Below are positions 1-62,505 of a stretch of DNA of 64,000 nucleotides, piece after piece. Numbering within the stretch: position 1 is the stretch's first letter; each line of letters starts with the position of its first letter. The notes beneath the pieces are model-generated. The model had not been told where the DNA came from. It worked only from the letters and a program-made list of their open reading frames with translations, and ran no database searches. The stretch is from a virus, in the IMG/VR virus record IMGVR_UViG_3300005096_000058, positions 46,148-110,147 of that record; one strand, 5' to 3'. The position numbers were made by a program, and so were the translations under genes.

Positions 1-403
1 GAGCGCCCCCACCAGGTTTGATGTCGGCGTTGCGTGCGACATGGGCAGCTCGCGCCTGGTTGAGTTGATCGACATTGAAATTGTAGCCGTTCGCGTTCGC
101 GACGGTCTTCAGGAGCTCGGAGAAGGTTTGGCACACCTCGCACTGCGCTTGCAGGGCTGGCTGGGCTGCCACCAACTGCACAAACGCTTTGGCGCTTGAG
201 ATCGAGGGTTTGGGGACGGTGGGGGTGCCCCGACGCGTGGCCTTCGTCTGGATGACATCTTCGGTCCAGCCACAAGCTAAAGCCTTGTTGGCATTGACCT
301 CGTCCTCAACGTCGATACACAAGTCAGCTCCGACTGCGTACGACGTGCCGTTGATGTCGATGGATTTACCCTTCAAGTGCGCGGAGCGTGTCTGGAGCAG
401 CAT
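1..403 (-). CDS. hypothetical protein (runs off window) with Nif11-leader-like helical segment
   Basis: Not in ORF track; manual translation from ATG at 403 (AAGGA RBS upstream) gives MLLQTRSAHLKGK...SISSAKAFVQLVAAQPALQAQCEVCQTFSELLKTVANANGYNFNVDQL..., open to position 1. Confidence 0.7.
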   Translation of the reverse strand, partial: MLLQTRSAHLKGKSIDINGTSYAVGADLCIDVEDEVNANKALACGWTEDVIQTKATRRGTPTVPKPSISSAKAFVQLVAAQPALQAQCEVCQTFSELLKTVANANGYNFNVDQLNQARAAHVARNADIKPGGGA

Positions 404-441
404 CTGATTTCTTCCTTGTTTCGGGGGAAACGATCGGCCCC

Positions 442-487
442 AAAAGAAGAAGGGGCGCGCGACCATCATAAGTCGTACACCCCTTCT
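442..487 (-). terminator. Rho-independent terminator after major capsid gene
   Basis: Minus-strand stem AGAAGGGGUGUACGAC / GUCGCGCGCCCCUUCU (with G-U pairs) followed by CUUUU. Confidence 0.7.
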
Positions 488-522
488 ATTCCAGACACCC
501 GGTCCCCGCTAGGGGTTAGGCG

Positions 523-1959
523 TTAGGGCTGCCCTTTGAAGTTGGGAGCGCGGCCGATGTTTTTGATCAGCACGGCTTTCCCGGGGGCGTAGAGCACCGG
601 CACGCCGTAGACCAACTGCATCCAACGGATGGACGTGTTGATCGTGGCCAACGGTACTTTGAGGAATGGCGCCAGCTGTTTCCAGCTGAGACATTCCAAG
701 TTTTGCTGCCAGAGGATCGCGATCGACGTGAACGGCAGACGATCGTTGAGATCCGTGACGGTGTGTTCACCGGCACCAGACGTGTTGGGGATGCGCGCGA
801 TGAGCCGTTGTTTGCCAACGGGGCCATCTTTGCGCGTGCGGTAGAGCTCGTACCACTTCACACCGATGGCAGACCCGGGGGTCACACCAAACGTCATGGA
901 GTCACCAGCGGCAACCGCGATGGCACCACCGCTGACCGCGACTGCGACACTGCGACCGGAATCGTTGTGCGCAGAAACGCTGTAGAAGTAGCTGCCCGCA
1001 TCGTCCGCTCCGAAGAGTGATCCGACGTCGACAGGGGTCGTGGCACCCGTGGAGATCGTCGGGGTGGCTGGCCGTAGCGCAGCATCACCCGCGGCGGTGG
1101 TCTTGGGGGCACCACCGTCGTTGACGAACACGTTGGGTTCGAATTTGACGTCACCAGCGGGGCTGGTGAAGCCAGACACGTCGAGGCCCACCATCCCATC
1201 TTTGCGCTTGTCCAGAAGGTCATAACGGCCTTTCGGGAAGAAGCTTTTGATGAGGTCGGCTTTGATCTTCGGATTCAGATGCAGATGCGTCGGAATGCCG
1301 TAGTTGGGCTCATCGGAAATGGTCAGTGCGGCGTCGATGAGAATGTCCTCGTCGAGCGGCTGACCACGTTGGTCGATGATGTTGTCAGCCGGCGCATTGT
1401 CGGTGATCAACTTTTCATAGCCATCGAACTGGATGTTCGACAGCGAAGAGTCCGCATAGAACATCGCGCGCTCGACGATGCGGAGAAGCCACATCGTTCC
1501 GGCCACGGTTTCGTTCGCGATGACATTGCCGTGAGCCGGGCGAATCAAGCTCATGACATGGGACACGCTGCGTGTCGTTCCGAGGAACTTCACGGCGGCG
1601 TAGCGTCGGGCGTAGGTGGAGTCGTCTTCGGTCGGCAACGCCCCTTCCGAAATGAACCCTTCAAGACCCTCGCCGTAGCTCGAAATCTCATTGTGCTCTT
1701 CTACTGTGTTGTACGCAGCCAATTTTGGGATCGCTTTGAACAGCCGAATGTGCTCCATGCGGTAGGTGACGTTTTTCAACGTCTGCTCCAAGGACTCCAC
1801 GCGGAGCGGGAAGCCTTGCCCGGGCGCAGCACCGGGGTTGTTGATGTCGCCGCCCGCAGTGAGCGCCTTGTTGAGGTGGTCGAGGTCGGTCGAGGAGAAT
1901 TGCCCGTCGCCGAATCCGTCCACCCCGTCGTAATCTTTCCAGGAAACTTGGTTCATCAT
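523..1959 (-). CDS. major capsid protein (Herelleviridae/SPO1-like)
   Basis: 478 aa; LNKALTAG...LRVESLEQTL N-terminus, AAVKFLGTTRSVSHV, FDG motif and WxQLxP/VYGVPVL C-terminus; follows protease and scaffold genes; GAAGGAGG RBS. Confidence 0.92.
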   Translation of the reverse strand: MMNQVSWKDYDGVDGFGDGQFSSTDLDHLNKALTAGGDINNPGAAPGQGFPLRVESLEQTLKNVTYRMEHIRLFKAIPKLAAYNTVEEHNEISSYGEGLEGFISEGALPTEDDSTYARRYAAVKFLGTTRSVSHVMSLIRPAHGNVIANETVAGTMWLLRIVERAMFYADSSLSNIQFDGYEKLITDNAPADNIIDQRGQPLDEDILIDAALTISDEPNYGIPTHLHLNPKIKADLIKSFFPKGRYDLLDKRKDGMVGLDVSGFTSPAGDVKFEPNVFVNDGGAPKTTAAGDAALRPATPTISTGATTPVDVGSLFGADDAGSYFYSVSAHNDSGRSVAVAVSGGAIAVAAGDSMTFGVTPGSAIGVKWYELYRTRKDGPVGKQRLIARIPNTSGAGEHTVTDLNDRLPFTSIAILWQQNLECLSWKQLAPFLKVPLATINTSIRWMQLVYGVPVLYAPGKAVLIKNIGRAPNFKGQP

Positions 1960-2722: not shown

Positions 2723-2733
2723 GGTGGTTCTCC

Positions 2734-4293: not shown

Positions 4294-7200
4294 GGGGCAG
4301 GCACCTTCAAGCCTTTGCAGGCCTTGTTGATGGAGGCGTTATTCTGCGTTGGGCTGGTGAAGAAGAAATCAGCGACGGGGATGTTGTTGATCTCAGTCTT
4401 CCCCGCTGACGTCAGCGTCTCAATCAATCCAGATCTGACTTGGTCGGAAGCACACCACACACCTGCAATGTCCTCGTGTGCGACACCATGCTCAAACAAG
4501 ACTTCATGGCTACTAGAATTCAAATTGAGTGTGTCAGGTTTTGACTTAGCCGGTGCTTGCGATCCGTAACCGTCGTGGTTGTGGGCCCAATAATCAGCCC
4601 GCTTCAGAATGCGAGGTCGATAGATATAGCGCACGGTAGAACCCGTATTGTAGCCATGCACACCGCTCGCCTGAGGACCACCTTTGCGTGCGATCCTCGT
4701 GAACACGCCTGCTGCGCCACCGGTATTCACGTCGGAGCCCGCCTGTGACGAGTAGGGTGCGGTGCCGGTTGTGTACCCCTGCTTCCGAGAGGGGACGCCA
4801 GTTTCTTGGAGCAGAAAGGCTGTGGCCGCACCGGGTGAATCGGCACCCGTGTGCACAAATTGCACGTCTTTGAGATCAGCATCGGTGATTTGATCAAATT
4901 CAACGGTGTGGGCGCCGCCCGCGCCCACCTTGATGCGGGCTGTGTCGACGTACTTGTCGAATCCAGATTTCTTGAGTTGGGAGTCGAGCCAAACTTCGTT
5001 GTCGTAGTTTTTCCGAGAAGCGCCCCAGTAACCCTTAGCCCCTAACGAGTTTCGCACAAGCTGCGATTTGATGAATAGCCGCTCAGCTTGTCCATCATGC
5101 GCGCTGGCAGCTAGCGCGGGCGCGATTCCCGCCAGCTGCAAGCCTTGTTGAAGTTCCGTTTGCACATCTTTTGACGCGGGGATACGCGCAACGAAGCGGT
5201 TCCGCATCGCCAACCCCCCATGGGCTTCAGGGGCTAGATCGCCGTTGTGCGCCACGCCTACGTAGGACCCCCCGTCCGTGAGCCCATCAAAACCAAACCA
5301 GCCCCCCTCAATGACGTTGTCTCCTTTTTTGTGGAGCCCAGTGTCCTCGTCATATACGTCGTACACCGCCCCACCAGCTTCATCCGTGGTGGAGGTGTAT
5401 TTGATCTTCCCTTTAGAAAGCTTGGATTTCTGCGGGTTGAAATTAAGCAGGTCGCCCGTGACCTCAAAGAAATCCTCGCCGTCTGGATTCGCAACACGGC
5501 GGACGCTGATCTGGCTGTTGATCCAGAGTCCCGCGCCGCCATGCCTAATCGTGTGACCCCAATGCCCCATCTTGATCGCATCGAGAGCACCGAGGTCAGC
5601 CTCGTTGTTGATGGCAAGCTCGCCTTGCTTCTGCGGCCCAAGAGCAAACGGGGGGGCCGACTGCGCAAAAGCAGGAGGCAGATCGGGAAGCTTGGGCGTA
5701 GTCACCGTCGTGGTTTCCACCGCGACGTCAAGGTCCGCTTTTGTCACGGTGAACACCGTGTTGGTGGCCACCATGGGCTCGCCGTGAACAGTGATGCTCT
5801 TGTCTGCAAGATATTGTTTGGCGGCTGCTTGCGCCTCGTTGGTAATCCCGCCGAATTTGATGACAATTTTATCACTGTCCGTGTCGTGCGGCTTGATCTT
5901 TTTAGGCTTCCCGAGGCCCTCTTCCGAAAACCCAGACACGAAATCAGCGACCACCTCATGTTTGACTGTTTTGGTGGTCACTTCCGTCTGCTCAAACGTG
6001 GTGCCCGCAGGGTAGTCAACGTTGTCTGGACCCTTGATCGTTTGCGTGCCTGGGAAGCGGTTGGCGAGTTCGTCCTTGCTCACGCCGAGCATGTCCCCAA
6101 GAGGAGAGGTTACGTCCGTCGACGGGGGCATACTTTGCCAGTTGGCCACCGCCTCTTTGAACTTCGCTGAATCCTTGCCGGCAATCAGGAAGTTACCTTC
6201 CCCATCGTCGTGCACGTGCAGCCCACCCTCGTAGCCCAGGCCAGCTAGCTTCTCCTGCAAGAAGGACAGGGTGAGGAGGTCCGAAGCCTTGTTGGATTGG
6301 GGGTGGGACTTCACCCAAGCTGCCCACGCCTTGGCCTTCTTCACTTTTTCAGAGTCAACACTTGGTTTTTTTACCGTCGGCGCGAGAGGTTTAGGTTTCT
6401 TCTTCTTTTTGACCGGGTCACCAGGCCACTGCACAGAAGCACCACCGGCCTCCTGAATCATCGAGGCCGCTTTTTTGGCGGTGAACCCCTCGCTGAGGGT
6501 GACGCCCTGTTTGTTCGTGACGCTGAACATGGGGTTCAACGCATTGGCTCCTGGACCGAGTGAGCTAAGCGTTTCCCCCCACTTGGTGTGTAGCTTCACG
6601 CCTGCCGGGAGGGCGTAAATCTTATCTATGACCGTCGTCAGTTTCAAATTGGAAGGAAGTGACTTCAGTTTCTTCTTGCCAGCGTCTGGACCCGGGGAAT
6701 CGAGGTCGGCATGGTCTACATACGGAGGCTGTGCAGCCGACTCAGCCACTGTGGTTTCGGCGGCGTACAGTTTGGAGGAAACGTCGGCGTCTGTGGGTAC
6801 GTCGGCCCACGCACCGCTGCTAGGCCCGGGCCCAAAGAATTCGACTTCCCAATCGAGCGCGTGGTCAGCTAGAAACGACGCTAGGGCCTCTGTAGGGGCC
6901 GCGCTCAAACCTTGTTTCGCATAACAATACAGTGAGTCATCTTCTAAATTAAATTCAGCCGCATATTTCTCTTGCACAGACGCGAGCGCGACGTACTCGG
7001 CTAGCGGTAGTTTGTCGACGACGACTTTGTTCTTCTGCTCCGGTGGGATGTCCTGCGGGTGAACGCCGATCGCTTCACCTGCGGTGGGCAAAGCCTTGTA
7101 CGTAGCAAACGAAACGTCTTGAGGGAAAGACGCATCAACGAGTTTGAATGCCGCCTTCACCTCGGCAATTGTCAGATTATAGATACCCATGAGATCTGCG

Positions 7201-11281: not shown

Positions 11282-13767
11282 CTCTTTTCATCTTCCAGTT
11301 CGAGTAGGTGGGTGACGGGGCTGTCTTCACCTAAAAATTTCACAGCCACCGCTAAACGTTCCTCGTCGTCGGTAGCATTTCCCCAGGCGGACCATCCTTC
11401 CTCACCCATCTGCTCATCAGGAATGACTACAATAGGGACAGACACACCGGCCGCCTTGGCCGCAGCAACTCTATGCGAACCGGTCCAAGCGTCTGGGCGG
11501 ACAGGATCGCCAGAAACCACGACGGGGGCGCCCACAAATTCACCTTGGGCGCGGAAGCGGCGCTCAATCGATTTTAATTTGTCCTGGTCGCGTACCTCGT
11601 GGAGGGGGTTGATCCGACTAGCTTGTATACTGCGCTGGCGCCTAATTGCGTGGCCTTTTAGATTCGAAAAATCAGCTGTATCTTTCGTATAGGGGATCGT
11701 GTGCTGTGGGTCGGCCCACTTGCCCCCTCGCGGTCCCAAGAACAAAGCCTTGTCTAGTAGATCGTCGCCACTCTTAGTGCCGAGGTCAATCGGTTTGCGT
11801 TCCTCGTCGTTCTCAATGATCCGCGCTGAATCATCTTCGATGGGCCAACGGGGCCTGCCCTCTTGCTGCGTCGGGTGCCACTGGCCTTCGGGCTGACGGA
11901 CAGCGCCGCGGTTGGTAGGTACGTCGCGCATCTGGAAACTGATCCGCGCCACCTCACGCTTGTGCTCTTCCGCGCGGTTCTCCGTCTCGTCGGGTGTGAT
12001 GATGTTCTTGGTGTTCTTGTAGGCATCGGCGATCGCGTAAATCTGCGTGTCGACACCCGCCCCAAAAACATAGATGCTGGGGTCGCGGCGGACGATGACA
12101 TCGCCATGATGTTGCGCCCCTTGGAGGTATTCGCGGACACCTGCGACGTCATGAGGGTTGTGCGGCTTGGCCGGTAGCTCGGCCTGAATGTTGACCCCGC
12201 CGCCGCTGCCTTCTTTGAGGATGAACTGCCCGCCGCCAACGGCGAAAGCTGTACCGCTCACACCCTCGACGTAGGGGACACCCTTCCGCATGAGGGTCAC
12301 CGCTCGTCTGCGGATCTTAGGCCGAATTGTGAACCGCGCGTCTGGACGGAGAGGAGGAGGCACCGGCTCCACGTAGTTGGGGTTGGGCACCACGAACTCA
12401 GGGGTGGCTTTTGACAACTTGCGCGGGTTGGCCAACGTGGTGGTGAGCTTGTCTTTGAGCTTGCCCACGCTCATCGTCGTCATGCTTCCGAAAAAACCTT
12501 CGTCATCGTAGTTGGCGAGATAGGCCGCTTTGGCCTCCCCTGCCGACGAAAAACCAAGCATAACCTTGTCCTCGTCGTAGCCCTCAAACTTCCCCTCTAA
12601 GGTGCGCTTGCGTTGGTGCACGACGTACGCCTTCGATGCAAGGGGGTTGGGTCCGACGAAGCAATCGACGTGATCACCGTCGACACCAAGCGTGCGCCGG
12701 ATGTAGCCGTAGGGCCAAAGCATCACGCTGGCCCCTGAAGTCTTGTTCTTGTGGTCCTTCCAAAAGCGCAGTCCACCCGCGCCGTTCTCGATGGCGATGT
12801 CCATGCCTTGGAATTGCAGCTCCCCGTCCAGACGGTACGCCTTCACCAGCGCGTCCATATGCTGGTCTTCTGCTCGCAGCGCTTTCTCCACGTCGTCAGC
12901 AGCACCCTCGTACTCAACACCAAACTCGCCGCCTGGCACCATCGTACCATCTTCGTCGTAGCCCCATCCTGCGGGGACGCGAACAGCCTGGCACTGGCAA
13001 TTGGGATGAATTGAGCCAATGCTTGGTACCCAGTCCGCTGCTTTCTTCCCCACGTTGGACCCGGGGGCGCCCAACTGAGACAGCTTGAAGATGATCGGGG
13101 CACCGTCGGGGCCTAAACTCAATCTGAGGCAGTGTTTGCAGGCGTCGGGCATGGCGATCAGAGAGACCCGGGCGTCCTCACCATATTGTTTGCGGAAACC
13201 GTCGGCGACGCCTTCCTGCATGACGTTGTGCTTCTCCGTGACGGCAATGCGGTCGAGGTTGCGGGTCCAGTCCTGCATGGCGTGCCCGAGCTTGCTCTTG
13301 AGCGTACCCACCGTGCTGCGGCTAGCCACATTCTCAGAGGTGCTCGTCTGGATGTCAGCTTGAAGTTTTTTGCGCTGGGCCTGGTCAGCTTCGATCAGGA
13401 GCTTGCCCGTCTGGATGTCGATCGTGTTCCCCAGCCCCTGCACGTACTGGGCGGCATTGATCTTAGCCGTCTGGATGGCCTGCTCCTCGACGGCAGACAA
13501 TGGGATGGGGTTTTTGGCGAGTTCAGCCTTGACCTTGTCGAGGTCCCAGGTAGGCATATTTGGATCTTGAAGCTTGGCCACCAGCTGGCCGTAGGTGTAC
13601 GCGGTTTCAAATAGATCTTCGTGGCCCTCTAGCAGCCCCGCGCTCTTCAGATCAGCCACAACTCCAGCCGGAATAGCAGTCGGACCAAAGACGTCGACGA
13701 CAAAAGCAGCGTTGTGCTTCTGGATGACCTCCTTCACCAACTGCATGAGTTCCGGGGTGAGCTTCAT
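11272..13767 (-). CDS. MuF-like minor head protein fused to inorganic-pyrophosphatase-like (InPase) and ParB/Srx-like domains
   Basis: RIAVTE..ACKHC..HPNCQC (MuF); IAIEN..YGYIRRTLGVDGDHVDCFVGP..DEDKVMLGF (InPase); PVVV..TGSHRVAAA..VPIVV (ParB-like); start chosen at ATGA overlap (track start 13794). Confidence 0.8.
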   Translation of the reverse strand: MKLTPELMQLVKEVIQKHNAAFVVDVFGPTAIPAGVVADLKSAGLLEGHEDLFETAYTYGQLVAKLQDPNMPTWDLDKVKAELAKNPIPLSAVEEQAIQTAKINAAQYVQGLGNTIDIQTGKLLIEADQAQRKKLQADIQTSTSENVASRSTVGTLKSKLGHAMQDWTRNLDRIAVTEKHNVMQEGVADGFRKQYGEDARVSLIAMPDACKHCLRLSLGPDGAPIIFKLSQLGAPGSNVGKKAADWVPSIGSIHPNCQCQAVRVPAGWGYDEDGTMVPGGEFGVEYEGAADDVEKALRAEDQHMDALVKAYRLDGELQFQGMDIAIENGAGGLRFWKDHKNKTSGASVMLWPYGYIRRTLGVDGDHVDCFVGPNPLASKAYVVHQRKRTLEGKFEGYDEDKVMLGFSSAGEAKAAYLANYDDEGFFGSMTTMSVGKLKDKLTTTLANPRKLSKATPEFVVPNPNYVEPVPPPLRPDARFTIRPKIRRRAVTLMRKGVPYVEGVSGTAFAVGGGQFILKEGSGGGVNIQAELPAKPHNPHDVAGVREYLQGAQHHGDVIVRRDPSIYVFGAGVDTQIYAIADAYKNTKNIITPDETENRAEEHKREVARISFQMRDVPTNRGAVRQPEGQWHPTQQEGRPRWPIEDDSARIIENDEERKPIDLGTKSGDDLLDKALFLGPRGGKWADPQHTIPYTKDTADFSNLKGHAIRRQRSIQASRINPLHEVRDQDKLKSIERRFRAQGEFVGAPVVVSGDPVRPDAWTGSHRVAAAKAAGVSVPIVVIPDEQMGEEGWSAWGNATDDEERLAVAVKFLGEDSPVTHLLELEDEKSWL

Positions 13768-14192
13768 CCCAGGCGGCCACGCGGCGTTGGGCACGTGATG
13801 GCCCGGTCGTGGTCAAGCGGGAACGCCTTGAGCACGATCTTCGGCTTACTAAAAAAGAACTCACGGATGCGCTGCTTGAGAGGTGGTCGGTACGCGGGCA
13901 GACCGGAAGCGATGCGGTGGTGCTCATCAAGGGTGTTAAACATGGGCGCCTGCTTAATGTCACGCCAGAACTCCACGTGCTCCATCTTAAAACTGACGCT
14001 GCGTAGCGTCAGCTCCAACGGCTCCGCGCGCCAGCCCACGCCTTGGGGGGGTAACGTGAGCGCCTCAAGTACCTCACCATGTGTCAACCGCGTGACCGGC
14101 TTGTACCCGAGGTCCAGGTTAGCTGCGAGCATGGCACCAGCAATACCAATACCAAGCTTCTTAAAGAATCCGCGACGTGTATCTGACATCAT
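13764..14192 (-). CDS. hypothetical protein with twin-arginine-like signal
   Basis: N-terminal DTRRGFFKKLGIGIAGAMLAA. Confidence 0.5.
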   Translation of the reverse strand: MMSDTRRGFFKKLGIGIAGAMLAANLDLGYKPVTRLTHGEVLEALTLPPQGVGWRAEPLELTLRSVSFKMEHVEFWRDIKQAPMFNTLDEHHRIASGLPAYRPPLKQRIREFFFSKPKIVLKAFPLDHDRAITCPTPRGRLG

Positions 14193-14650
14193 TTTGAGTC
14201 TGCTTTCTTTGTCGACTCCGTGAACAGATCGCGGAGCTCGTTGACGCTCATGCCGTAAAGCGGGCCGCCTTCTTCGAAGTCTTCCGGGGTGTAACCCTGA
14301 CCAATGAGCGCAGCCTGCATCTTGTCATAGGCAGCTTGCTCCTCGTCGACCATTTTGGCCGTGTAATCTGGGCTCGCTGTTGCGCTCTTGACCATGTGGC
14401 CGTCCACCGTCTGGACAATCTCTGTGATCATGCGATCGAAACCGCGTTGGGCTCGGGCGCGCATTTTCGTGTGGAGGTCGCGAAGCGCCTGGTGCTTGAG
14501 GACGGGTTCGTGCGCGGGGGCCGTGGCCGCCTTCTGCAGCCGGTCAGCGAGCGCAGGAGCATCCTCCCCGAGCGCTTTGGCCATCGCGTCGAGCAACTCC
14601 GACCCACGCTCACGCAGCTCCTCAGGCGTAGCTTCCAGACGCAATTTCAC
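14189..14650 (-). CDS. hypothetical head-module protein
   Basis: GTGA overlap start; helical; LQKA, MVKS motifs. Confidence 0.6.
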   Translation of the reverse strand: MKLRLEATPEELRERGSELLDAMAKALGEDAPALADRLQKAATAPAHEPVLKHQALRDLHTKMRARAQRGFDRMITEIVQTVDGHMVKSATASPDYTAKMVDEEQAAYDKMQAALIGQGYTPEDFEEGGPLYGMSVNELRDLFTESTKKADSK

Positions 14651-15048
14651 GGCAGCGCGTCTCCCCACACAGCCCAGATGAGACGGAGGTCTGCGATCGG
14701 GGTGACGATCAAAGCGGAGACGTCGCATTCCATAAAAACTTTAGACTCAGCAAACACGGCAGCGCTGGCCCCTGTTGCCCCGCGCCGCACCTGGAACGGG
14801 CCGGCGCCGTTGATCAACAGATCGAAGTCCCCTGTGGCGCGAAGGAAGAAACCTTTACCCACCGTCACCACTGCGCCAAACGGGACGGTGAACGCACCAT
14901 CTGACGAGAGCAGATTTTTGGCGTCGCTGGTCTGTGAGGTGAACCCATCGAGGATCGCCTCAGAGAGGGCATCGTCCAGACCCAGCAACACGTTCTTGCC
15001 GTCCGCGTCTTCGGTGATCTTGGGATTAACTGTGTGCCTGATACGCAT
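14647..15048 (-). CDS. hypothetical (possible structural) protein
   Basis: 133 aa; GGAGG RBS; directly follows portal. Confidence 0.65.
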   Translation of the reverse strand: MRIRHTVNPKITEDADGKNVLLGLDDALSEAILDGFTSQTSDAKNLLSSDGAFTVPFGAVVTVGKGFFLRATGDFDLLINGAGPFQVRRGATGASAAVFAESKVFMECDVSALIVTPIADLRLIWAVWGDALP

Positions 15049-15057
15049 GACGCCCTC

Positions 15058-18000
15058 CTATAGGTCGAGGTCGATGCTCACAATACCCGGCACCGCCGCT
15101 GGTGTCCCCTGCCCCCCCAAAGCCTGTGAGGACCAGCTGCCTTTGCCGAATGGATTTCCTCCCCCAGACGAGCCCTTCTTGGCTTCCTCATCGGAGGTGG
15201 CAGCTGCGCCGTCCTCAGCATCTGCTGCGTTCTCGTTTTGGATGCCATCGAGTTCACCACCGAATGCGGCGTCCGTGCCGTCGTCCTCCGCAAAGTCTCC
15301 GGTGCCCATCTCCTGCTGCGCCGCCATCGTCTTGTTTTGCATCCAGACAGCGTGGAGAATGACTTGCCCCTCTCCGTCTGGAAGCGGCGGGAGATCTTCC
15401 TCGGCACGCACCTCGTCGACCATCTTGTACGATGTCACCTGCTTTGTATTGAGGTCAGCGAGCTCGTCTGGGGTTTGCGCGTCCAGACCGACAAAAGCGA
15501 ATTCGAAATCTTCGTCGATGCGGTGAACGAGGAAGGAGGACAACCGGTGCTGGATAAATCGGAGAAGGGGCTGCAGCCCTTTGTCTTTGGACTGCGCCAG
15601 CTTTTGCTTGTTGCTCGACTCAAACATCGAGCCGCCGCTGCCCCCGCTGTCCCCATATTTGAAGTTGATCTCCATCGGATCCATGCCGTAGATCGCGCAC
15701 GCCACCTTGATCAGGAAATCAAACCACGCGCTGAATTCCATGTCGCGGTTGGATTGCTGCAGGTTGATGTATTGGAGCTCCTCCGCATTTGTGATCGGAG
15801 TTTTGAATGCGTTCTCGACGCCAGCGACCATCGAATACCAATGACGGCGAAAAGCGCGCAGCTGTTTCTCAGGCACGGCACCTTTGAAGTTGATGATGCC
15901 TTTGGTCGACGTGCCTTGGCTGTTGTGCACGGCCATGTGGTTGAGCACGAACAGGTGCTCGTCGTTGAAAACCTCGACATCGAACATCTCACGATCTTCG
16001 TCGGCGTGACCAACAACCTCAACCGGCACCTGTAGGTAGCGCAGCCACGCGGGCTCCTCAGCACCGAGGCGTTGCAGAAGGTGGATTGCGTAGGCGCGGC
16101 TCATCGTCACGCGTCCCCCCGACGCTTTGCGGGCCATGTCGCGCTCCGCAACAGAGAGGGACTTGTAGTTGTCGTGCTTCCAGACGTGCGTACCAAGGTT
16201 GCGGCTCAAGTGCGGGTGCAACCGGTCCCAGCGATCGCGCTGAGCAGGACTGCGTTCAATCCCCTCGTTTTTGTACGCCTGCAAATAACCCACGGACGAC
16301 GTGAAAGAGGCGATGTCCTGCACGGTGATGGTACCGTGTCGGCTCGCAGCTGTGCCTCCACCCACAAGGTTTGAAGCCACGCCCACCGACCACAAACACT
16401 TGAGGATGTCCTGCGCCAGAGCCGGATCGGAGGAATGCACGCTTGGGGTACGGTAACCTGTGGCGTGTGTGGCGGTGCAGCCATCAGCACTGAAGATGCC
16501 GCGGAGCAAAGCGGCACGGATGTGCGCTGGCTGGCGGTAGACACTTTCAGGGATGCGCTTACCCTCACGAGACGGGCGGAAACCAATGTCACGCAGCCAG
16601 CGGTGGAACGCTGTGTGGCATATTTGCAACGCTGGGTAACCAAACTCGCCATCGCTACGCTCGATGGTTTTGTTGATCACACGGTCGGTGCAATGAATAC
16701 CATGCCTCACGCAAACAGCCTTAAACCGTTCGAAGAGATCAGCATCACGAGAATAGTGCGGGAAGACTTGCAACCAGCTGGGGGTGTCTCGCCCTTCATC
16801 GGGGAAGTACCCATCACCTAGCGCGAAGCCCATGAACTCCCAAAATTCAGGGTCCTCAATGAGCGCTTTCGTGGGGCGGAAGTCGCGTCCTGTTTTTCGA
16901 TCGGTGTCGTAAACGCGGTCGACGAGGAGGGTCTCATAATCGAATTCAGGGTCGGAGCGCTCATAGCTGACCAAGGCGAAATCGCCGGCCTGCAAGTCTT
17001 CTTGGCGGACCCATTCGGGATCACCATCACGGGAGCTCGCTGGGATCACGCGGTACCTATGGTCGGGACTGGTGGTGAGCTCCAGCCCATTCCACAATGT
17101 GGTGACCGCGGTGACCTTCTTGCCTGTGGGGAAAGCGCGCGCCTCCCCCCAAGTGCCTGGGCCAGTGCTGGCCACGAAGTTTTTTCCAGACAGATCCCTC
17201 AAAGGGATCAACCCTTCTGATGTGGTCACCAGCCCGTCGCCATCCGCACAAAAGAATTTCTGATTATAGTCCCATGACCAAAGTAACGACGTCACCGTCG
17301 AGATCAACATCTCTGTTTCGGCAATCCCGTACCCTTGGTTTCGGATGTCCGTGACCGGATTGCGAACACCAAAACACATCTGATCAGCGCCATATTCGGC
17401 TGTGACCAGGCCGTCGTAGATCTGGACGTAGCGGGTCTCTTCGGGTGTGCCTTGGTAGTAAAGCTTGGTTGTGTCCGCGATGCGCAGCGTGGCGCCGTCA
17501 ACGGCGTAGAAGTCGTAAGGCTTGTCACCACGATCTTCCCGCACCTCGAAACCCAGTTGGTCATAGGTCAATGCGTCGCGCACGATCTTGCGCAAGAACG
17601 TCTCAAAATTGTCGCGAGCATTGGGTGTGCCGCGGTCGTTGACCTTGCCCGTTGTCATCACCCAGTTGGTGATCTCTTTGCTCTTCTTTTCGCTGGCCTT
17701 AGAGGGGGAAGCCTTGCGATCACGCAACTGGATGCGAAAGCCTGTCTGGAACTTGTCCTCCTGCGGCAGACTGAAATTGGCCATCTGGTCGGTGCGCGTC
17801 TTGATGATCGCCTGGATGATCGGCATGCGGAAGACCATCGCCGACAACGTCGAGTAACTGATTGAGCTTGGCCGCTCTTTGTATCCGAGCGCGTCAATGA
17901 CTGAGAACGGATCCCAGAACAAGGCTTTGGGATCGCTGACCGGATCACCAATTTCTGACGGGTGTGGACCGGCCGTTGCGGGCGTGTCCGTAGTGGGTTG

Positions 18001-18099: not shown

Positions 18100-18107
18100 A
18101 AGGCCGC

Positions 18108-38472: not shown

Positions 38473-38490
38473 GAGGAGCCTCCAGACAAG

Positions 38491-38519: not shown

Positions 38520-38522
38520 GCC

Positions 38523-46298: not shown

Positions 46299-46839
46299 AT
46301 TCATCCCCGTGCCCGTCCCAGCCTTCTGGAATCTTGCCGCGGGCGAAAAGTTCAATGCGCGGGCGATCGCCAAGTAGCTCGACGATGCGATCGCGCACTT
46401 CGGGGGGCTTAGTCGAATGCTTCCCAGGCAATGGCTTCGGAGCAAAAACCGTCTGGACAATCTTCTCGCTCAACAGCGGAAAAACGCGCTTGTCCTTCGT
46501 CGAGTAAACAAGGCAGAATTCAGTGAGAGGCTTAACCGTGCGCGGACGGACACCACTGGCCTTGAGCGGAGTACCGTCCAGCTTGGTCTTCACCCAAACG
46601 AAGGCCACGCCTTGGTAGATCAAGCCTTGTTTCTTCCAGCGTTCGCCGCAGCGAAGAGCCAGGTCCAACTTCGGGCAGGTCACCCATGAGAAGACGATCG
46701 CATCTTTCGCGAGGAAGAGGGACCAATCGAAGTTGGAGATCTCCTCCTCAGTCATTTGCTTGTACGTGAGCTTGGCCGTGCCGAATTTTGTGTACGTCCA
46801 TGGGAAATCAGTGAGGACAATTTCGTAACGCTTGGTCAT
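46285..46839 (-). CDS. MT-A70-family adenine methyltransferase
   Basis: DFPW, FVWVK, TEFCL, HSTKP, RIELFAR, GWDGHG. Confidence 0.85.
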   Translation of the reverse strand: MTKRYEIVLTDFPWTYTKFGTAKLTYKQMTEEEISNFDWSLFLAKDAIVFSWVTCPKLDLALRCGERWKKQGLIYQGVAFVWVKTKLDGTPLKASGVRPRTVKPLTEFCLVYSTKDKRVFPLLSEKIVQTVFAPKPLPGKHSTKPPEVRDRIVELLGDRPRIELFARGKIPEGWDGHGDEYDPG

Positions 46840-51399: not shown

Positions 51400-52236
51400 T
51401 CACCCCACTGCCAACAATTCGTTGACGTCTGTACGGCCGGCGCCATCGGTGTTGACTACATATTTGGTGGTCAGCGTCTGGATTTTTGCGTCTGGCCAGA
51501 TGAGTTGAAACAACGGGCCAAGGGCGGGGTCACAGCTGTTGCTATAGATCACCGTCGCGCCTGCGTTGCGCCACTTCCAGATCTGGCAGAGGAGCTCGAC
51601 GTGGTCCGCGTGATCAAAGCCCCCAGCCGTGTACCCGGCAAAGGCTCCGTAGTAGGGCGGATCGACGTAGACGCAGGCCCCTGGGGCTACCTCCAGCTCT
51701 TGGTAGCTCCCCGTGCGCAGCTCGACGTACTGTAACGCTTGGTGCCATTCGTCGATGTTGTCGTTGTCAGGGAGAGCGATGCTCTTGTATTTGCCCCAGG
51801 AAGCGTTCAGTTTGTCTTGGCGGTTCACGCGCCAGAGTCCGTTGAATGTGGTTTGTTTCAGGAACACGAAGCGCGCAGGATCACGTCCTTTTTCGCTTTC
51901 ATTCCAGAGGCGTCTGGACTCCAAGAACATTTGGGCGCGATCTTCCTGGGTCCCGTCGTCGTACTGCTCACGGTAGACCGACAATGCGGCTTTCAACCTC
52001 TGCACCCCCCGGGGGTCCTGCACCATTTGGTAGAGGGACATCAGGTGAGGGTTGATGTCCCCCAGCGACACGCGTTGGCACGTGTCCAGATCTCCAGCGT
52101 TGACCAGCTCGCAGAAGAGCGCGGCGCCCCCTGCAAACGGCTCGTGATATTCGGTCACGACGAGAGGGACATGCTCCGCAATGTCGGGGGCCAACCGGGT
52201 TTTCCCTCCGACGTATTTGGTCAATGGGCGCATCAC
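51400..52236 (-). CDS. dam: Dam-like (D12 class) DNA adenine methyltransferase
   Basis: KYVGGK, EPFAGGAA, DIN, FNGLWRVN, YVDPPY, YSNS. Confidence 0.9.
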   Translation of the reverse strand: MMRPLTKYVGGKTRLAPDIAEHVPLVVTEYHEPFAGGAALFCELVNAGDLDTCQRVSLGDINPHLMSLYQMVQDPRGVQRLKAALSVYREQYDDGTQEDRAQMFLESRRLWNESEKGRDPARFVFLKQTTFNGLWRVNRQDKLNASWGKYKSIALPDNDNIDEWHQALQYVELRTGSYQELEVAPGACVYVDPPYYGAFAGYTAGGFDHADHVELLCQIWKWRNAGATVIYSNSCDPALGPLFQLIWPDAKIQTLTTKYVVNTDGAGRTDVNELLAVG

Positions 52237-52370
52237 CGCTCCTCACTGTAGCCGCACACCGTGCAACACCAAGAATTCTGAGTGAGACGGCGTAAGGCCT
52301 CCTCGTCGCAGTTTGGACACTTCATGATCTCAGGGGTAGGGGTTTCAGCTGTCTGGATACGGAGCGGCAT
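52233..52370 (-). CDS. small Zn-ribbon protein (below ORF-track cutoff)
   Basis: ...MKCPNCDEEALRRLTQNSWCCTVCGYSEER; stop overlaps the dam start. Confidence 0.45.
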   Translation of the reverse strand: MPLRIQTAETPTPEIMKCPNCDEEALRRLTQNSWCCTVCGYSEER

Positions 52371-53382
52371 GTGTGTCCCCTTTCATAAGGTAAAGCTGGC
52401 GGGCTGCAGACGCGGCGCGCATGAGTCTGCAAGCCAAGTGTTGTAGCTCCTCAGTCTTCTCCACGGCAATGACCCAGTCGAGGCGGATCTCCCCATAGCC
52501 CACGTACGCTCCTGCGAGTGCACCAGCGATGGCGGCAATGCTATCGCTGTCTCCGGGAGAATTGGCCCCCATGCGGACCACGGCTGTGTGCCCACCCACT
52601 TTGACGTAGCGGAGAAACACAAAGAGCGCAGCCGCCACGGCTTCGTGCCCGGCCCATCCGCGCCATTGGTCCAGCATAGCGGCTGTGGTGATCTTGCCGT
52701 CCTGAGCAGACGCTTCGGCGATCACGAGCATGTCCCCGGTGCCTTGGTCGTAACGGTAAGCGGCGTCTTGCATGCTGGAGGCGATGCGTGCGGGATCGTA
52801 GTTGCGTAAAGCTGACCAGACGCCAGCGGCCAGAGCGGCACTCGCAGCCATCGCCAACGGGGCGCCGTGGGTCAACCGGCTGTGCTCCGCTGCCACCTTG
52901 ATCGCGCGCGCACGATCGTCAAAGTAGAACAGCCCGTAAGGGTGCGCACGCATGACGCTACCGCAGCCACCCGCACCGTCGTTGGTGTTGGGTCCGCCGC
53001 ACTCCCACCAGGGAAGCTGGCCCTCGTCGAGCTTAGTGCACCCTGACATGCACGCGCCGCCTGGAGCCCGATTATTGTCTGGGCTTTTGTACCAAGCAAT
53101 GAACTCCTCAGCGACTTCAGAGGCGGCGTCATTCACCGTACCCACCTTGCCAGCTCGGATCAGGCCCTCGGCCACCGCGCGGGCCATCTGCGTGTCGTCG
53201 CTGTAGATTGCGCAGTTTTCTCCGTCGATCTCGCGTAGTTGCAGCGTCTGGATACCGGCAGAGCCAAAGCGTTTGTGTATGTCCGCCATGGACGAGAACT
53301 CGACGGTATAACCCAACGCATCCCCTATGGCGGACCCCAAAATGCACCCCATGAACTTGTCTTTCAGATCGATTGCAGGCAC
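52345..53382 (-). CDS. ADP-ribosylglycohydrolase (DraG/ARH family)
   Basis: GSAIGDALG..EF, YSDDTQM, GCGSVMR, LTHG, GDSDSIAAIAGALAGA. Confidence 0.92.
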   Translation of the reverse strand: MPAIDLKDKFMGCILGSAIGDALGYTVEFSSMADIHKRFGSAGIQTLQLREIDGENCAIYSDDTQMARAVAEGLIRAGKVGTVNDAASEVAEEFIAWYKSPDNNRAPGGACMSGCTKLDEGQLPWWECGGPNTNDGAGGCGSVMRAHPYGLFYFDDRARAIKVAAEHSRLTHGAPLAMAASAALAAGVWSALRNYDPARIASSMQDAAYRYDQGTGDMLVIAEASAQDGKITTAAMLDQWRGWAGHEAVAAALFVFLRYVKVGGHTAVVRMGANSPGDSDSIAAIAGALAGAYVGYGEIRLDWVIAVEKTEELQHLACRLMRAASAARQLYLMKGDTHAAPYPDS

Positions 53383-54943: not shown

Positions 54944-55723
54944 TTATTCGGGAGGGAGGAGGCATTGCCCATCGAATGATTGATCTCGACGGCTGAACAA
55001 CTCTAGGGCGTCGTCGTCGACAGCCCCCACATCCATACCCGGAACAATTGGTCGTCGGAACGCCGCCGCTTTGATACGATCTCCCGGGAATAACGGACCA
55101 GGGTCCTGCTTCCGTCCCGGGCTCAAGAAGCTGTGATCAAGGATGCGGCCGGCGGTGATCGCTGGCGTGTCCTGCACCATAAGCCTGACCAGAAAGATGT
55201 TTGATTCGATCAGCTCCTCGGTGAACGGTTCCCACCATCGAGTGTGCCCGTCGTCGCCTATATGGCTCTGGGGTGCGGGGAGATCGGCCGGGTAGGGCCT
55301 GCCTTTGATCCAGCCTTGCCCTGACTTCTTCGGGACAAAGAATGACTTGGTTTTTTCGTCTCGGATCAGCCACCCGTAATTGCTGTTCTCGATGCCAACT
55401 GTGAATTCGTTGATTTCCGCCTTGGGGTCCATCAGGGGCCAGCGCCCTGAATTGAGGCCCGCTGCGTGGTAACACACCTCGTCGAGGTCAGCCTGCTGGA
55501 CGGTGTGACCATTCCGGTAGATTGTGAAATGCGCGAAGTATTTGGCCGGTGGGACCAGCTTACCCTTCCAGACAGATTTGCCCGCAACCCAGCGAACAAG
55601 GCTTCGGCCTGAGCCGCCGCCCGTGTAATGCTGCACAACGCCCGACAAAGGCAGCGTGCGTTTGTGGCGCACCAAGGCTGCGCGCACGTATTCGATTTTG
55701 GGGCTGAGAAGTTTGTACGTCAC
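54944..55723 (-). CDS. N-acetylmuramoyl-L-alanine amidase (AmpD-like; putative endolysin)
   Basis: VVQHYT, AHFTI, CYHAAG, VGIE, H..LSPGRKQDPG; GTGA overlap start. Confidence 0.85.
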   Translation of the reverse strand: MTYKLLSPKIEYVRAALVRHKRTLPLSGVVQHYTGGGSGRSLVRWVAGKSVWKGKLVPPAKYFAHFTIYRNGHTVQQADLDEVCYHAAGLNSGRWPLMDPKAEINEFTVGIENSNYGWLIRDEKTKSFFVPKKSGQGWIKGRPYPADLPAPQSHIGDDGHTRWWEPFTEELIESNIFLVRLMVQDTPAITAGRILDHSFLSPGRKQDPGPLFPGDRIKAAAFRRPIVPGMDVGAVDDDALELFSRRDQSFDGQCLLPPE

Positions 55724-56835
55724 TTGGGTGCCTCCACTTTGATGAGGGGCCAGACCGCCTCCACGAACCTGTCCGCTTCCAGACGAATGGGGTCCGTGGA
55801 GGTGGAATAGCACACGTTGACTAGGTCATCCGCGATATTGTGCAGCGCGTCCCAGAGGAGTTTGCCACGGTAGCGCGCGATGACGATGTCAGTGCTGGGG
55901 GCAGCTGGGAAGGGGAGCGTCTGGGCAAACTTGACCTCCCCGTCAGCCTCAATGCCTTGGATACTGAGGGCAGCATCGCCAAAGCGGAGTTCCACTTGCT
56001 GCGAAACGGTAGACGTTTGTGCGTGCTTCACAGCTTGTTTGAACGCCATTTTGTCGACGATAGAACGGTGGCCGAGGTGCTTGTCTGGGAGCATGGCAGA
56101 CAGGTCAAAATACGTACTTGCGTCCAGACATTTGGTGAAACGGAGTTCGCCTCCAGCCCAGAAAAAAGCGTGCTCGCCGTGCCATCCCACCGCGCACCCG
56201 AGCGCGTCATTTTTGCGGGCGGGCCATTGCGCGAAAATGCGTGCGGGAACCAACCGGGGCTCGTGCGTGAGCGCTAGCGACGTGCGGGCTACGCGGTACT
56301 GATCGCTGGCCTCGGTCCACTTGGGGTGGAAGTGCACACCTTGCAGTGCGGGGCGCTCGTGCCCGTCCTTGGTGTCCTTCTGCGCGGCGTGGAGCACGGC
56401 CTTGATATGCGGCCACCCTTCAAAGCGGTGGAGCTCAGGTGGCGCCTCAGGCAACGGCGGGAATTCTGATCCATGTGTGCACGGAACCACAAATTTGTTC
56501 CCTGATTGGAAATCGATCCGTGCTGTGCTGGGGCCGGTTGTTTTGATTTCAAAGCGCGTGGTTTTCTTGGTGCCCTTGAACGCGATCGCCAAGGAGGTTG
56601 CCCGCATGGTGAGATCAGGCACGACCTCGAAAGGGTCGATGGTGATCATCACGCCCGTGTCGCCGTCTGTGGCGGTCACATATCCTGGAAACGTGGGCCA
56701 CCAGCCCCCCGCGGCATCCTGCTGAAAGTCCGCGGGGGGCACGCAATGGACGCAGTGTATCGCGCGGATGGCTTGATCCTTAGCTTCCTTCGCCGCAAAT
56801 TTCGCAGCGCGAAGCAAAGCGTCACGTAGCAGCAT
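55720..56835 (-). CDS. DNA polymerase III beta-type sliding clamp
   Basis: 371 aa; ATDG, EFPPLP, RPALQGVHF, ASDQYRVA, LWDAL. Confidence 0.75.
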   Translation of the reverse strand: MLLRDALLRAAKFAAKEAKDQAIRAIHCVHCVPPADFQQDAAGGWWPTFPGYVTATDGDTGVMITIDPFEVVPDLTMRATSLAIAFKGTKKTTRFEIKTTGPSTARIDFQSGNKFVVPCTHGSEFPPLPEAPPELHRFEGWPHIKAVLHAAQKDTKDGHERPALQGVHFHPKWTEASDQYRVARTSLALTHEPRLVPARIFAQWPARKNDALGCAVGWHGEHAFFWAGGELRFTKCLDASTYFDLSAMLPDKHLGHRSIVDKMAFKQAVKHAQTSTVSQQVELRFGDAALSIQGIEADGEVKFAQTLPFPAAPSTDIVIARYRGKLLWDALHNIADDLVNVCYSTSTDPIRLEADRFVEAVWPLIKVEAPK

Positions 56836-57935: not shown

Positions 57936-58223
57936 TCAGAGGGGGAGGTGAGGGCCGTCGTCGACGGTGTAGGTCCACCCCGTGACCACTCGCGTAAGCC
58001 TAGCAGGCGCCATGTGGCCCGCCACGACGTAGGAACGCTTTATCGTCCCATTCGGGTGGAATTTGACTTGGGTAACTTCATGGGTAACGTCGTCGATCGA
58101 CGTTACCATCGACACTCTATGTCCGTCTCCGTCATAGACCTTGATTAGGTTAGCTAGCTGATGCACACCAACTTCAATGCGCATGTTGTTTTTCCTTTGT
58201 TCTTCTTGCGGTGGCGATTTCAC
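57936..58223 (-). CDS. hypothetical protein
   Basis: Coupled ORF. Confidence 0.45.
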   Translation of the reverse strand: MKSPPQEEQRKNNMRIEVGVHQLANLIKVYDGDGHRVSMVTSIDDVTHEVTQVKFHPNGTIKRSYVVAGHMAPARLTRVVTGWTYTVDDGPHLPL

Positions 58224-58821
58224 GTTCGCCAGTTGTTTTCACATCGGAACAGCTGCGGCACATCACCTGTAGGTTTTCGACCTCACAAAACATGGCCGCG
58301 ATGACGAGGTCCCAAGACACAAAGCCGATGGCTGGGTCTATGATCGGGAGGGTGTGGTCGACGATGACGTTGTTGATTCTCTTTTTCTTAGACTTGTGCC
58401 CCGGGGGTGTCGGTATCGACGAGGGCACCACCTTGCTGCAGACAGAGCAGCGGTACATCCCCCGGGACACCTTGGCAGCACGGCGTGCGTCTGCGATCGG
58501 GGCCCAACGCATGGACATCTGACGTAGCCCACCTTTGATAAAGGACACAAACCTGGCCTCGGTCCATTGGCCGCTGGCGCGCGTGCGCGGGACAAGTTGC
58601 CTACCCTTCGCTGGTTTCGGCGTCTTCGCGACTGGGGGCGATGGTGAGCGGGGGGCGGGCAGGGTCGGTGACGGCGTCGTCTTCTTCCTCGCTTTGGATT
58701 TCTGGGAAATCACTCGGTGGATCGTCACTGCCCTCTTCACCACTCGCTTCGCGGGCCGAGTCCGCGTTCGCGGTGACTGCACGGTTGACGAGGGCGGCTG
58801 CCAGTTTCTCGGGGTCTGCAT
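58174..58821 (-). CDS. HNH endonuclease (start uncertain)
   Basis: YRCSVC..VDH..P..NLQVMCRSC..KT; track start overlaps the upstream ORF by about 220 nt. Confidence 0.75.
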   Translation of the reverse strand: MQTPRNWQPPSSTVQSPRTRTRPAKRVVKRAVTIHRVISQKSKARKKTTPSPTLPAPRSPSPPVAKTPKPAKGRQLVPRTRASGQWTEARFVSFIKGGLRQMSMRWAPIADARRAAKVSRGMYRCSVCSKVVPSSIPTPPGHKSKKKRINNVIVDHTLPIIDPAIGFVSWDLVIAAMFCEVENLQVMCRSCSDVKTTGEREIATARRTKEKQHAH

Positions 58822-61074: not shown

Positions 61075-62048
61075 GCGTGCGTCACTTCTGCGAGCGCTTC
61101 CAGAAGTCCAGCCGAGTCGAGCTCCCCCGCATGCGTGAGGGCGTAGGCGCGGGCCGTCTCTGCTGCGGAGGCTGACGTGCCGAGGCCCAGCCGGTCCGCT
61201 CCGTAAGATTGCTTAGGAGGGTCGACAAACACCTCAGCGCCAGTCAGCGCTTTCACCTGCTTCACAGCCTCGACGGGGTCTAGCTCGGGATCGAGGGTGA
61301 GGTGTACGCGGTCGCCGGGAGAAGCCTCTGCGAGTTCAGGGTTTGGGGACCCTTTGGTCATCTGGACGCGGTGGTGTCTACGCCCAACCCTGATGGGCAC
61401 GTGCTCCCAGCCGTCATCATCTATCCAGATGAACCCCTTTTCCTGGCCGGCCTCGTCGGCGCGCGTCTGCCAAGGGCTGCCGACGTACACCACGTTAGCT
61501 ACCTCCTGGTGGCGGTGCCAATGTCCCGCAAACACGGTGTCAAAGCCCGAAAACACCGCAGGGGGGATACCGTCAAGTTCGCCCGCGACAACGTTGGTAT
61601 TCATCATGGCACCTTGAATTCCATGATGGAGCCACGCCACGTTAGGGCTGCTGTCTGGACGTGGTTGTGTCTGGACCACCTCAATGATCTCGGAAATGTT
61701 GCGACGAAAAGGCAGCCAAAGGCCGTGCTCGTTCCACGCCGGATCCGTCATGATCTGTGCGTGTGCTCGGAACACCTCCAGCGCATGACGGCCCGCAACG
61801 TCGTCCTGATCGTGGTTGCCGGGAAGGATCACCAGCTCGAAGCTTTGTCGTGCTCGCTCAACCCAGTCGAGGACACGATTTTGAAGTGCGATCGGCACCG
61901 TGTATCTCAAATCGTAGACGTCACCGAGGAGCACCAGCGTTTGCACGTTGTACTCCTCGGCCTTCTGCAGATAGACGTCCAGCACCTCAAAAACGATGTC
62001 GGCCGTTTCAGGTTTGAGGTGTAGATCTGCGGCGAGGAGGTAGCTCAC
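61071..62048 (-). CDS. SbcD/Mre11-like (gp47-like) nuclease
   Basis: ADLH, LGD, PGNHD, GHWH, YVGSP. Confidence 0.9.
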   Translation of the reverse strand: MSYLLAADLHLKPETADIVFEVLDVYLQKAEEYNVQTLVLLGDVYDLRYTVPIALQNRVLDWVERARQSFELVILPGNHDQDDVAGRHALEVFRAHAQIMTDPAWNEHGLWLPFRRNISEIIEVVQTQPRPDSSPNVAWLHHGIQGAMMNTNVVAGELDGIPPAVFSGFDTVFAGHWHRHQEVANVVYVGSPWQTRADEAGQEKGFIWIDDDGWEHVPIRVGRRHHRVQMTKGSPNPELAEASPGDRVHLTLDPELDPVEAVKQVKALTGAEVFVDPPKQSYGADRLGLGTSASAAETARAYALTHAGELDSAGLLEALAEVTHA

Positions 62049-62293
62049 GAATCGCTGCGCTTCGCTGAAGTGCGGACGTTGTTCACGCGGTGCTTGGATC
62101 CATCCGCACCAATAGCGTGCATTCGGTATTTGCCTTTAGAGAAGTCGCGCGTCTGGATCAGCTCAGGAGCTCCGACGTGTCTGGACAGCTCACCACACTC
62201 TTTGCAGGACTCAACGAGGGTGTCTTTCTCGTTGTGTCTACAGAGCACTTCCTGTGTGTGGCCGGTGGCGCAGGTGAACGTGTAGATGGGCAA
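62045..62293 (-). CDS. FmdB-like zinc-ribbon protein
   Basis: MPIYTFTC..GH..E...CKECG. Confidence 0.7.
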   Translation of the reverse strand: MPIYTFTCATGHTQEVLCRHNEKDTLVESCKECGELSRHVGAPELIQTRDFSKGKYRMHAIGADGSKHRVNNVRTSAKRSDS

Positions 62294-62295
62294 CC

Positions 62296-62505
62296 TTAGC
62301 CCTCCTCAGCGTCTGGAATATGGGACCGCACAAAGCAGTCTTTCGCCTCCAGAAGTTTGCGCAGCGCAACGGTTTGTTCCGCGCGGTCAACCGATTCTGA
62401 ACCAGCAATGTGCTCAGCGAGATCAGCAAACGGCTTGCTGCGCGGTTGCAGGTGGTCGGGCAATTGTTTGTACGCAAAATAACGCAGAAGTCGGTGGCGG
62501 GTCAT
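62296..62505 (-). CDS. small helical-hairpin protein (possible Acb2/Tad1-like)
   Basis: YFAY..LP.HLQ..SKPF..LA...E.TVALRKLLEAKDC.VR. Confidence 0.5.
   Translation of the reverse strand: MTRHRLLRYFAYKQLPDHLQPRSKPFADLAEHIAGSESVDRAEQTVALRKLLEAKDCFVRSHIPDAEEG

Follow-up and report, generated by a model that had tools for sequence, protein, structure and literature searches.

It is well known that phages tend to avoid short fixed sites, and the stretch of DNA analyzed here raises the question of why one of them would accumulate such a site instead. The stretch (64,000 nucleotides, called the window below) corresponds to bases 46,148–110,147 of a 110,147-bp virus record (IMG/VR IMGVR_UViG_3300005096_000058; 58.5% G+C (GC)) from a phage that we labeled G000, and the site is the heptamer TCCAGAC, or GTCTGGA when read on the complementary strand. 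An initial annotation, made from the letters of the window, had reported about 120 copies on both strands against about 10 expected. We counted 127 exact copies (70 on the plus strand and 57 on the minus strand), with a match at every coordinate that had been listed, while dinucleotide-preserving shuffles of the window contained 9.02 ± 3.03 copies, with a maximum of 15. The whole genome contained 197 copies (103 on the plus strand and 94 on the minus strand), at a mean spacing of about 550 bp, which amounts to about one copy per 1.1 kb on each strand. TCCAGAC was the most over-represented 7-mer of the genome with Markov models of both order 1 and order 3, which predicted 15.3 and 21.5 copies, respectively. 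With such models, the hexamer TCCAGA was found 320 times for 54 expected and the octamer TCCAGACG 129 times for 4.7 expected.

The base following TCCAGA in the genome was by far most often C (197), less often A (58) or T (55), and G was avoided (10). TCCAGAC was itself mostly followed by G (129) or A (54), and the full word of G000, [G/T]TCCAGAC[G/A], has an asymmetric logo. A preference for extended forms had been noted before, as the quasi-palindrome GTCYRGAC; an extension does exist, but only 72 of the 197 copies fit this pattern, and the true one is asymmetric, with G or T before the heptamer and G more than A after it.

To decide whether the excess could come from the encoded proteins, we used the 83 genes called with confidence, nearly all of which are on the minus strand. 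They contained 158 copies of TCCAGAC, compared with 32.9 ± 5.1 after permutation of synonymous codons within each gene, and with 44.8 ± 4.6 when the dinucleotide at the codon boundary (positions 3-1) was also kept. Even in the shuffled genes, the word was about three times as frequent as expected from base composition, which indicates that the protein sequences have been bent toward the word too. As the initial annotation had stated, copies are present in all reading frames: all six are used, and the word is read as VQT, IQT or FQT, as xPD, as SRx, as RLE or RLD, as xSG and as VWx. Sense and antisense copies were equally frequent in the confident genes (77 and 81), and the 12 copies outside called open reading frames (ORFs) corresponded to a density equal to that of coding DNA. 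Because of this equality, the placements in a leader hairpin, a ribosome-binding site and first codons, to which a regulatory meaning had been given, look incidental.

Three trivial explanations could be discarded. A codon or dipeptide artefact is ruled out by the synonymous and context-preserving shuffles and by the use of six frames; an assembly artefact or a repeat family, by the unrelated flanks of the copies and by the presence of the trait in dozens of independent metagenome contigs; and a general property of GC-rich DNA, by GC-rich relatives that lack any TCCAGA excess and serve as composition controls (L011, G011, G014, G015 and L081). These results bear out the proposal that the word is maintained in the DNA itself and does not come from protein, composition or assembly, and we consider it likely that TCCAGAC is a selected DNA-level signal.

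The copies did not show any arrangement of higher order. Periodic spacing, a check of which had been suggested, was not found: in the spacing analysis of the genome, distances fitted an exponential distribution (Kolmogorov–Smirnov p = 0.48–0.69), and there was neither periodicity nor a preferred geometry of close pairs. Orientation was essentially random along the genome (runs test z = −0.19). A weak switch of orientation near genome position 60.5 kb (p = 0.015) was common only to the close relative G001, the sites of which are largely inherited in common with those of G000, and it was absent from G003, G004 and G012. The word-poor stretches, at 14.8–19.3 kb and 36.0–40.3 kb of the genome, are those with the most atypical composition, which fits with words accumulating with residence time.

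Two regions located before the window, at 13517–18614 and 36035–40293 of the genome, are nearly devoid of the word, have the most atypical tetranucleotide make-up and are likely recent imports. The first one contains large ORFs, one of them with an Ig-like domain (tail-fibre-like).

Further evidence for selection was provided by the fate of individual sites in G001, the closest relative that we found (89% identity in the terminase and about 75% in DNA), of which 29.9 kb could be aligned with G000. In this alignment, 24 of 58 TCCAGAC sites (41%) were letter-identical, against a background of 12.5% when all 7-mers were counted and of 12.0% when only those with the composition of TCCAGAC were (p = 4e-8), i.e. 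a 3.3-fold higher conservation. TCCAGA followed by a base other than C was conserved in only 6 of 35 cases, as the background. Individual TCCAGAC sites are under purifying selection, and since only TCCAGA followed by C is conserved, the selected unit in the G000 lineage is the full heptamer.

We then looked at related phages, using the large terminase as an anchor and a de novo ranking of k-mers to find the word of each locus. Terminase and primase profiles retrieved about 130 loci from IMG/VR, with terminase identities ranging from 89% down to 33%; many of the contigs are complete at 95–113 kb. These phages, in which almost all genes are on one strand and GC ranges from 27% to 73%, form a very large group that is apparently uncultured: of the 8000 candidates that were scored, at least 878 are terminase relatives with E ≤ 1e-20. 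No cultured phage had a terminase with more than 30% identity, and DNA searches against cultured phages gave a methyltransferase gene as the only match.

The comparison revealed what could not be seen from the window: TCCAGAC is one dialect of a family of words that extends over the clade. It is used by G000, L001 and L003, while TTCCAGA or TCCAGAA is used by L002, L005, L010, L012, L015, L026, L028, L245, L246 and L269, TCCAGC by L013/L264, and TCCGGA(A) by L009/L243 (412 copies over 57 kb for 31 expected) and L025/L267 (198 for 24), as well as in a distant sub-clade by L096 (44 for 4) and L058. Counts of TCCAGA in whole genomes reached 514 in G012, 305 in G004 and 298 in G001, compared with 77, 28 and 49 for the reversed control word. 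All dialect words exceeded synonymous shuffles and occupied all frames; in the clade, they occur once per 280–560 bp, at 200–500 places per genome, with a 6- to 13-fold enrichment. The family spans phages of 36% to 67% GC, down to 34% terminase identity. Some relatives do not have any word, notably the low-GC G008 and G020 (32–34% GC). CTCGAG, GAGCTC and TCCGCA, found in some relatives, were rejected as dialects: they are mostly in frame 0 or frame 2 and are partly codon effects. When IMG/VR was scanned for motif clusters that could point to unrelated phages rich in such a word, the matches listed were mostly coding tandem repeats.

The codons of the terminase illustrate how the words are written. 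At a conserved Y/F-L-E, the TCCAGA phages spell TAT or TTT, CTG, GA and the others TTC-CTC-GAG; at a conserved K-F-R-I-P, TTC-CGG-AT is written only by the two TCCGGA phages. Thus, each genome is tuned independently, through synonymous codons, to its own one-letter variant. The dialect words are single-base neighbors of TCCGGAA, which, to judge from its presence in both sub-clades, is probably the ancestral word.

It is unlikely that the signal is set by the host, because a single family of words spans phages of 36% to 67% GC and because the Sulfuricurvum metagenome-assembled genome (MAG) that holds L096 contains TCCGGAA at about the frequency expected by chance (380 copies per 2.3 Mb), with the reservation that binning does not prove the host. 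Taken together, the data lead us to think, with somewhat more confidence than doubt, that the word is encoded by the phage and that its reader would be a vertically inherited phage protein other than a methyltransferase, the specificity of which would drift by single-base steps, with the genome following.

Which protein this might be is a more difficult matter. Our tentative first choice, held with limited confidence, is the phage's own zinc-finger primase of the DnaG type, encoded at 5492–6580 of the genome (minus strand) next to the DnaB-type helicase; it would work with this helicase and use the word as an extended priming signal, on either strand, during recombination-driven replication. 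The primase, whose zinc ribbon is of the form CxxC...CxxC and whose gene belongs to the core set of both clades, was put first because no other named core protein would be expected to recognize a short asymmetric word. Two other considerations led to this choice. On template DNA, YGTCTGGA contains CTG and GTC, trinucleotides that are classic for primases, and has a pyrimidine as start base followed 3' by GGA, this Y-GGA element being found in all dialects; and the density per strand, about one per 1.1 kb, is the size of an Okazaki fragment. The other replication proteins encoded by core genes are PolA, the two helicases (one of the DnaB type and one of the SNF2 type) and a clamp-like processivity factor; RecA and SbcCD belong to the core as well.

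Several points weigh against the primase. Relatives without any word also possess the replication genes, RecA and SbcCD, and two of them, G008 and G020, encode a primase of the same family, the zinc ribbon of which is similar. When 33 zinc ribbons were aligned and sorted by dialect, no clear pattern of covariation appeared, in a test of low power, and when the presence or absence of gene families in 140 loci was compared with richness in the word, only the phylogeny was recovered. Known DnaG-type primases need only a trinucleotide. The spacing is random instead of even, and the density of the word in G003 and G012 is higher than priming would require. There was no conserved lagging-strand polarity, the weak switch near 60.5 kb being found only in G000 and G001, and the near-equal strand counts fit equally well with recognition of duplex DNA.

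A broader scenario, more speculative still, is that a whole clade of uncultured ~110-kb phages writes a private, heritable "self" code, in which a 7-letter word placed at 200–500 sites would be read by a phage enzyme that travels along DNA, either a primase-helicase or a nuclease-helicase. The DNA of the phage would thereby be replicated or spared, unlike that of the host or of rivals. Shifts of the dialect by one letter, to which restriction of the ancestral TCCGGA core by the host may have led, would act as barriers between related phages. Such a code would be a phage counterpart of Chi and of the DNA uptake sequences (DUS) of Neisseria, with a reader of its own.

The alternative that survives best, though we rate it as unlikely, is a Chi-like self-mark: the word would stop or switch a processive helicase-nuclease, that of the phage or, less likely, the RecBCD or AddAB of the host, so that phage DNA would be spared or directed into RecA-dependent replication, word-poor DNA would be degraded, and dialects would separate related phages. 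The word is short and asymmetric, its sites are conserved and randomly spaced, as for a signal of which more is better, and its two orientations are found all along the genome at similar frequencies, which is required if DNA ends may arise anywhere. The phage encodes RecA and SbcCD, and there is a precedent, since Chi is selected in lambda red gam mutants. However, scans of about 80 proteins with Pfam and PHROGs, which left many ORFs without assignment, did not reveal any RecB/AddA-like nuclease-helicase, and RecA and SbcCD are not restricted to word-rich phages. A Chi set by the host should not remain within one word family in phages of 36–67% GC, the one MAG tested showed no enrichment, and both the density (one per 280–560 bp) and the enrichment (6- to 13-fold) are above those of known Chi sites. 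There was no orientation bias of the Chi type either: the strand ratio is 103:94 genome-wide, the runs test gave z = −0.19, and the weak switch is not seen in G003, G004 and G012.

We regard as rather improbable that the words are duplex binding sites for a phage protein that coats, organizes or protects the chromosome, either a virion protein that is packaged and ejected or a global silencer, comparable to the proteins acting at mycobacteriophage stoperators and P1 C1 operators. Duplex recognition is the simplest way to account for near-equal strand counts without conserved polarity, one dialect has a palindromic core, and the phage encodes several helix-turn-helix and winged-helix proteins as well as a virion protein of 2226 amino acids. 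Yet no candidate protein tracks the word, the helix-turn-helix proteins of G000 not being found in the compared parts of most relatives, and close pairs of sites do not show a preferred arrangement. We know of no operator-type system with 200–500 sites per genome, mostly in genes and in both orientations. As to a link with a stoperator-type repressor, the sites are not oriented with transcription (77 sense and 81 antisense) and no repressor was found.

The initial annotation had also proposed that the word is the target of one of the three methyltransferases of the phage (Table 1). This can be extended to an unrecognised modifying enzyme, the word being then a target of DNA modification by the C5, MT-A70 or Dam-type enzyme or by that other protein. 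Besides the three genes, this idea has in its favor that the highly iterated palindromes (HIPs) of cyanobacteria reportedly co-occur with cognate methyltransferases, and that the word resembles in shape the sites of Type IIL, BREX or Type III systems, which have 6–7 bp, are asymmetric and carry an A near the 3' end. Nevertheless, it did not withstand the comparison with relatives. G003, G004, G009 and G012 are complete and 6- to 13-fold enriched in TCCAGA or TCCGGA, but had no match to PF00145, PF05063, PF02086 or PF01555, the four methyltransferase families to which the search was confined, and MT-A70 is missing from G001, which has the same word. The phage methyltransferases of these four Pfam families were therefore rejected as readers, and we consider modification of the word in general to be quite improbable.

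The MT-A70 protein (184 amino acids) overlaps the stop of an ORF of 546 amino acids that has no match in Pfam or PHROGs, and the two may form an adenine methylase made of two parts. Nearly all relatives lack this pair; the larger ORF, which has only a partial match in G001, was also rejected as a reader. GATC shows a 1.8-fold enrichment that extends to TGATCA, AGATCT and CGATCG, and this excess is probably due to the Dam-type methyltransferase.

The last alternative is that the word has no selected function and results from a neutral drive of mutation or repair, for instance a mismatch repair of the very-short-patch type or the deamination of methylated TCCGGA. G000 contains no copy of TCCGGA for 69 expected (34.5 sites), and CCGG is depleted (910 for 1387 expected); TCCGGA is one transition away from TCCAGA or TCTGGA, and its loss would produce both orientations equally. 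This drive can be dismissed as very improbable, since the pool is too small (about 35 lost TCCGGA sites for about 266 surplus TCCAGA sites), the other one-off neighbors of the word are not depleted, G003 is 13-fold enriched in TCCGGA with TCCAGA at expectation (23 for 18), the seventh and eighth positions are also specified although a drive acting on one position cannot give a word of 7–8 positions, and sites are conserved 3.3-fold above background.

TCCGGA is one of eight palindromic hexamers with zero copies, the others being CTCGAG (36 sites expected), ACATGT (20), CTTAAG, TTTAAA, GATATC, ACTAGT and AGTACT. Their absence is strong but ordinary restriction avoidance, and such avoidance was accordingly rejected as the cause of the word. 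The avoidance of TCCGGA may nonetheless account for the shift of this lineage to TCCAGA.

G000 contains other over-represented sequences. A second iterated word, AAGCCTTGT, is present in 29 copies (18 on the plus strand and 11 on the minus strand), in genes and in several frames; examples in the window are at 280, 5140, 6284, 7091, 11745, 17919, 22924, 29557, 37327 and 37849. It is nearly missing from G001 (3 copies in 50 kb) and from other relatives, and is thus specific to this phage and recent. The 8-mer AGCCTTGT occurs 35 times for about 4 expected. ATATGTCT (10 for 0.7 expected) and ACATATGT (8 for 0.6) are rare AT-rich words that are over-represented and may be promoter-like elements. 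Both ends of the record lie within one 33-bp tandem repeat (1–100 and 110050–110147 of the genome, the latter at about 63900–64000 of the window), and since these ends overlap, the assembly is probably circular or terminally redundant and was opened at an arbitrary position. The coordinates of the features of the window are collected in Table 1.

Table 1. Location of the iterated word and of the genes discussed in the text, in window coordinates.
Feature	Position	Strand	Remarks
TCCAGAC dispersed set	246–62317	both	127 copies, exact count
Large terminase gene	21794–24997	−	Contains an intein (intein or LAGLIDADG homing-endonuclease insertion); conserved residues spell each phage's own word
C5 cytosine methyltransferase	30045–31091	−	Missing from most word-rich relatives; excluded as general reader
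MT-A70 adenine methyltransferase	46285–46839	−	Not in the closest relative with the same word; excluded
D12 (Dam-type) methyltransferase	51400–52236	−	In 2 of 14 relatives, one of them word-less; excluded
ORF of 546 amino acids	46836–48476	−	
Portal gene	15058–18099	−	Intein or LAGLIDADG homing-endonuclease insertion
Clamp-like DNA polymerase processivity factor	55720–56835	−	
HNH endonuclease	58174–58821	−	
ADP-ribosylglycohydrolase	52345–53382	−	

A widespread group of uncultured phages thus does the opposite of avoiding a short site, at a measurable cost to codon choice and protein sequences. The two points that we find of high interest are the evolution of the dialects and the lack of a detected methyltransferase in word-rich relatives. 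A word that changes letter by letter along a phage tree amounts to a natural experiment in the co-evolution of a DNA reader and its hundreds of sites. Once the reader is identified, it would become clear whether self-marks spread over the genome serve phages in replication, protection or kin discrimination, and the iterated words of cyanobacteria, which still lack an explanation, could become easier to understand. From a practical point of view, the dialect is a sequence signature with which metagenomic contigs of the clade can be sorted.

The likeness to HIP1, Chi and uptake sequences that had been pointed out from the window was upheld. In the literature searched, we found no description of the word, and nothing relevant on TCCGGA, on iterated palindromes in phages or on the enrichment of primase sites. 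Of the known systems, HIP1, Chi, primase sites and stoperators each differ from the word in features that define them, as far as these could be examined. HIP1 (GCGATCGC) and the alternate palindromes of cyanobacteria are likewise short words that exceed their expected number tens of times and occupy every frame as well as non-coding DNA; they, too, are specific to a lineage and replaced by alternates in related genomes. HIPs are, however, palindromes of cellular genomes that have cognate methyltransferases, whereas the present word belongs to phages, is asymmetric in most lineages and is abundant in relatives with no detectable methyltransferase. It is not a perfect palindrome of the HIP type: TCCAGAC(R) is asymmetric, and a palindromic core exists only in the TCCGGA dialect, the flank of which (TCCGGAA) is again asymmetric. 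Chi (GCTGGTGG in E. coli), which is recognized by RecBCD or AddAB, protects linear DNA and promotes the loading of RecA. Like the word, it is an asymmetric sequence (5–8 nucleotides) that is over-represented and kept by selection, but it is set by a host enzyme, strongly co-oriented with replication and sparser (about one per 4.5 kb in E. coli), while the phage word has no conserved polarity and forms one family over very different GC contents.

The sites of primases (5'-(G/T)(G/T)GTC-3' for T7 gp4, CTG for E. coli DnaG and an 8-nucleotide site for NrS-1 PrimPol) share with the word that they are short, asymmetric and, as proposed for the word, read on a single strand, that they may be on either strand, that a conserved core is surrounded by degenerate flanks and that their spacing is on the scale of Okazaki fragments; the phage does have a zinc-finger primase. 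The sites of DnaG-type enzymes are, in contrast, trinucleotides that do not need any genome-wide enrichment, and the word shows neither polarity nor even spacing, with the primase family being kept in word-less relatives. The stoperators of cluster A mycobacteriophages and the C1 operators of P1 are also asymmetric protein-binding sites scattered in a phage genome, many of them in genes; they differ in being tens of sites of 13–17 bp, oriented with transcription and bound by a known repressor, compared with hundreds of sites of 7–8 bp in both orientations and with no identified binder. The DUS of Neisseria and the uptake signal sequences of Pasteurellaceae are kept by biased uptake through bacterial competence pili, a step that a phage does not have. 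CGTCTGGA is one base away from the DUS core CGTCTGAA (one mismatch in 8), a likeness that is probably due to chance. The resemblance to these uptake sequences lies rather in their frequency of about one copy per kb on both strands, and in their dialects, which also differ by one or a few bases.

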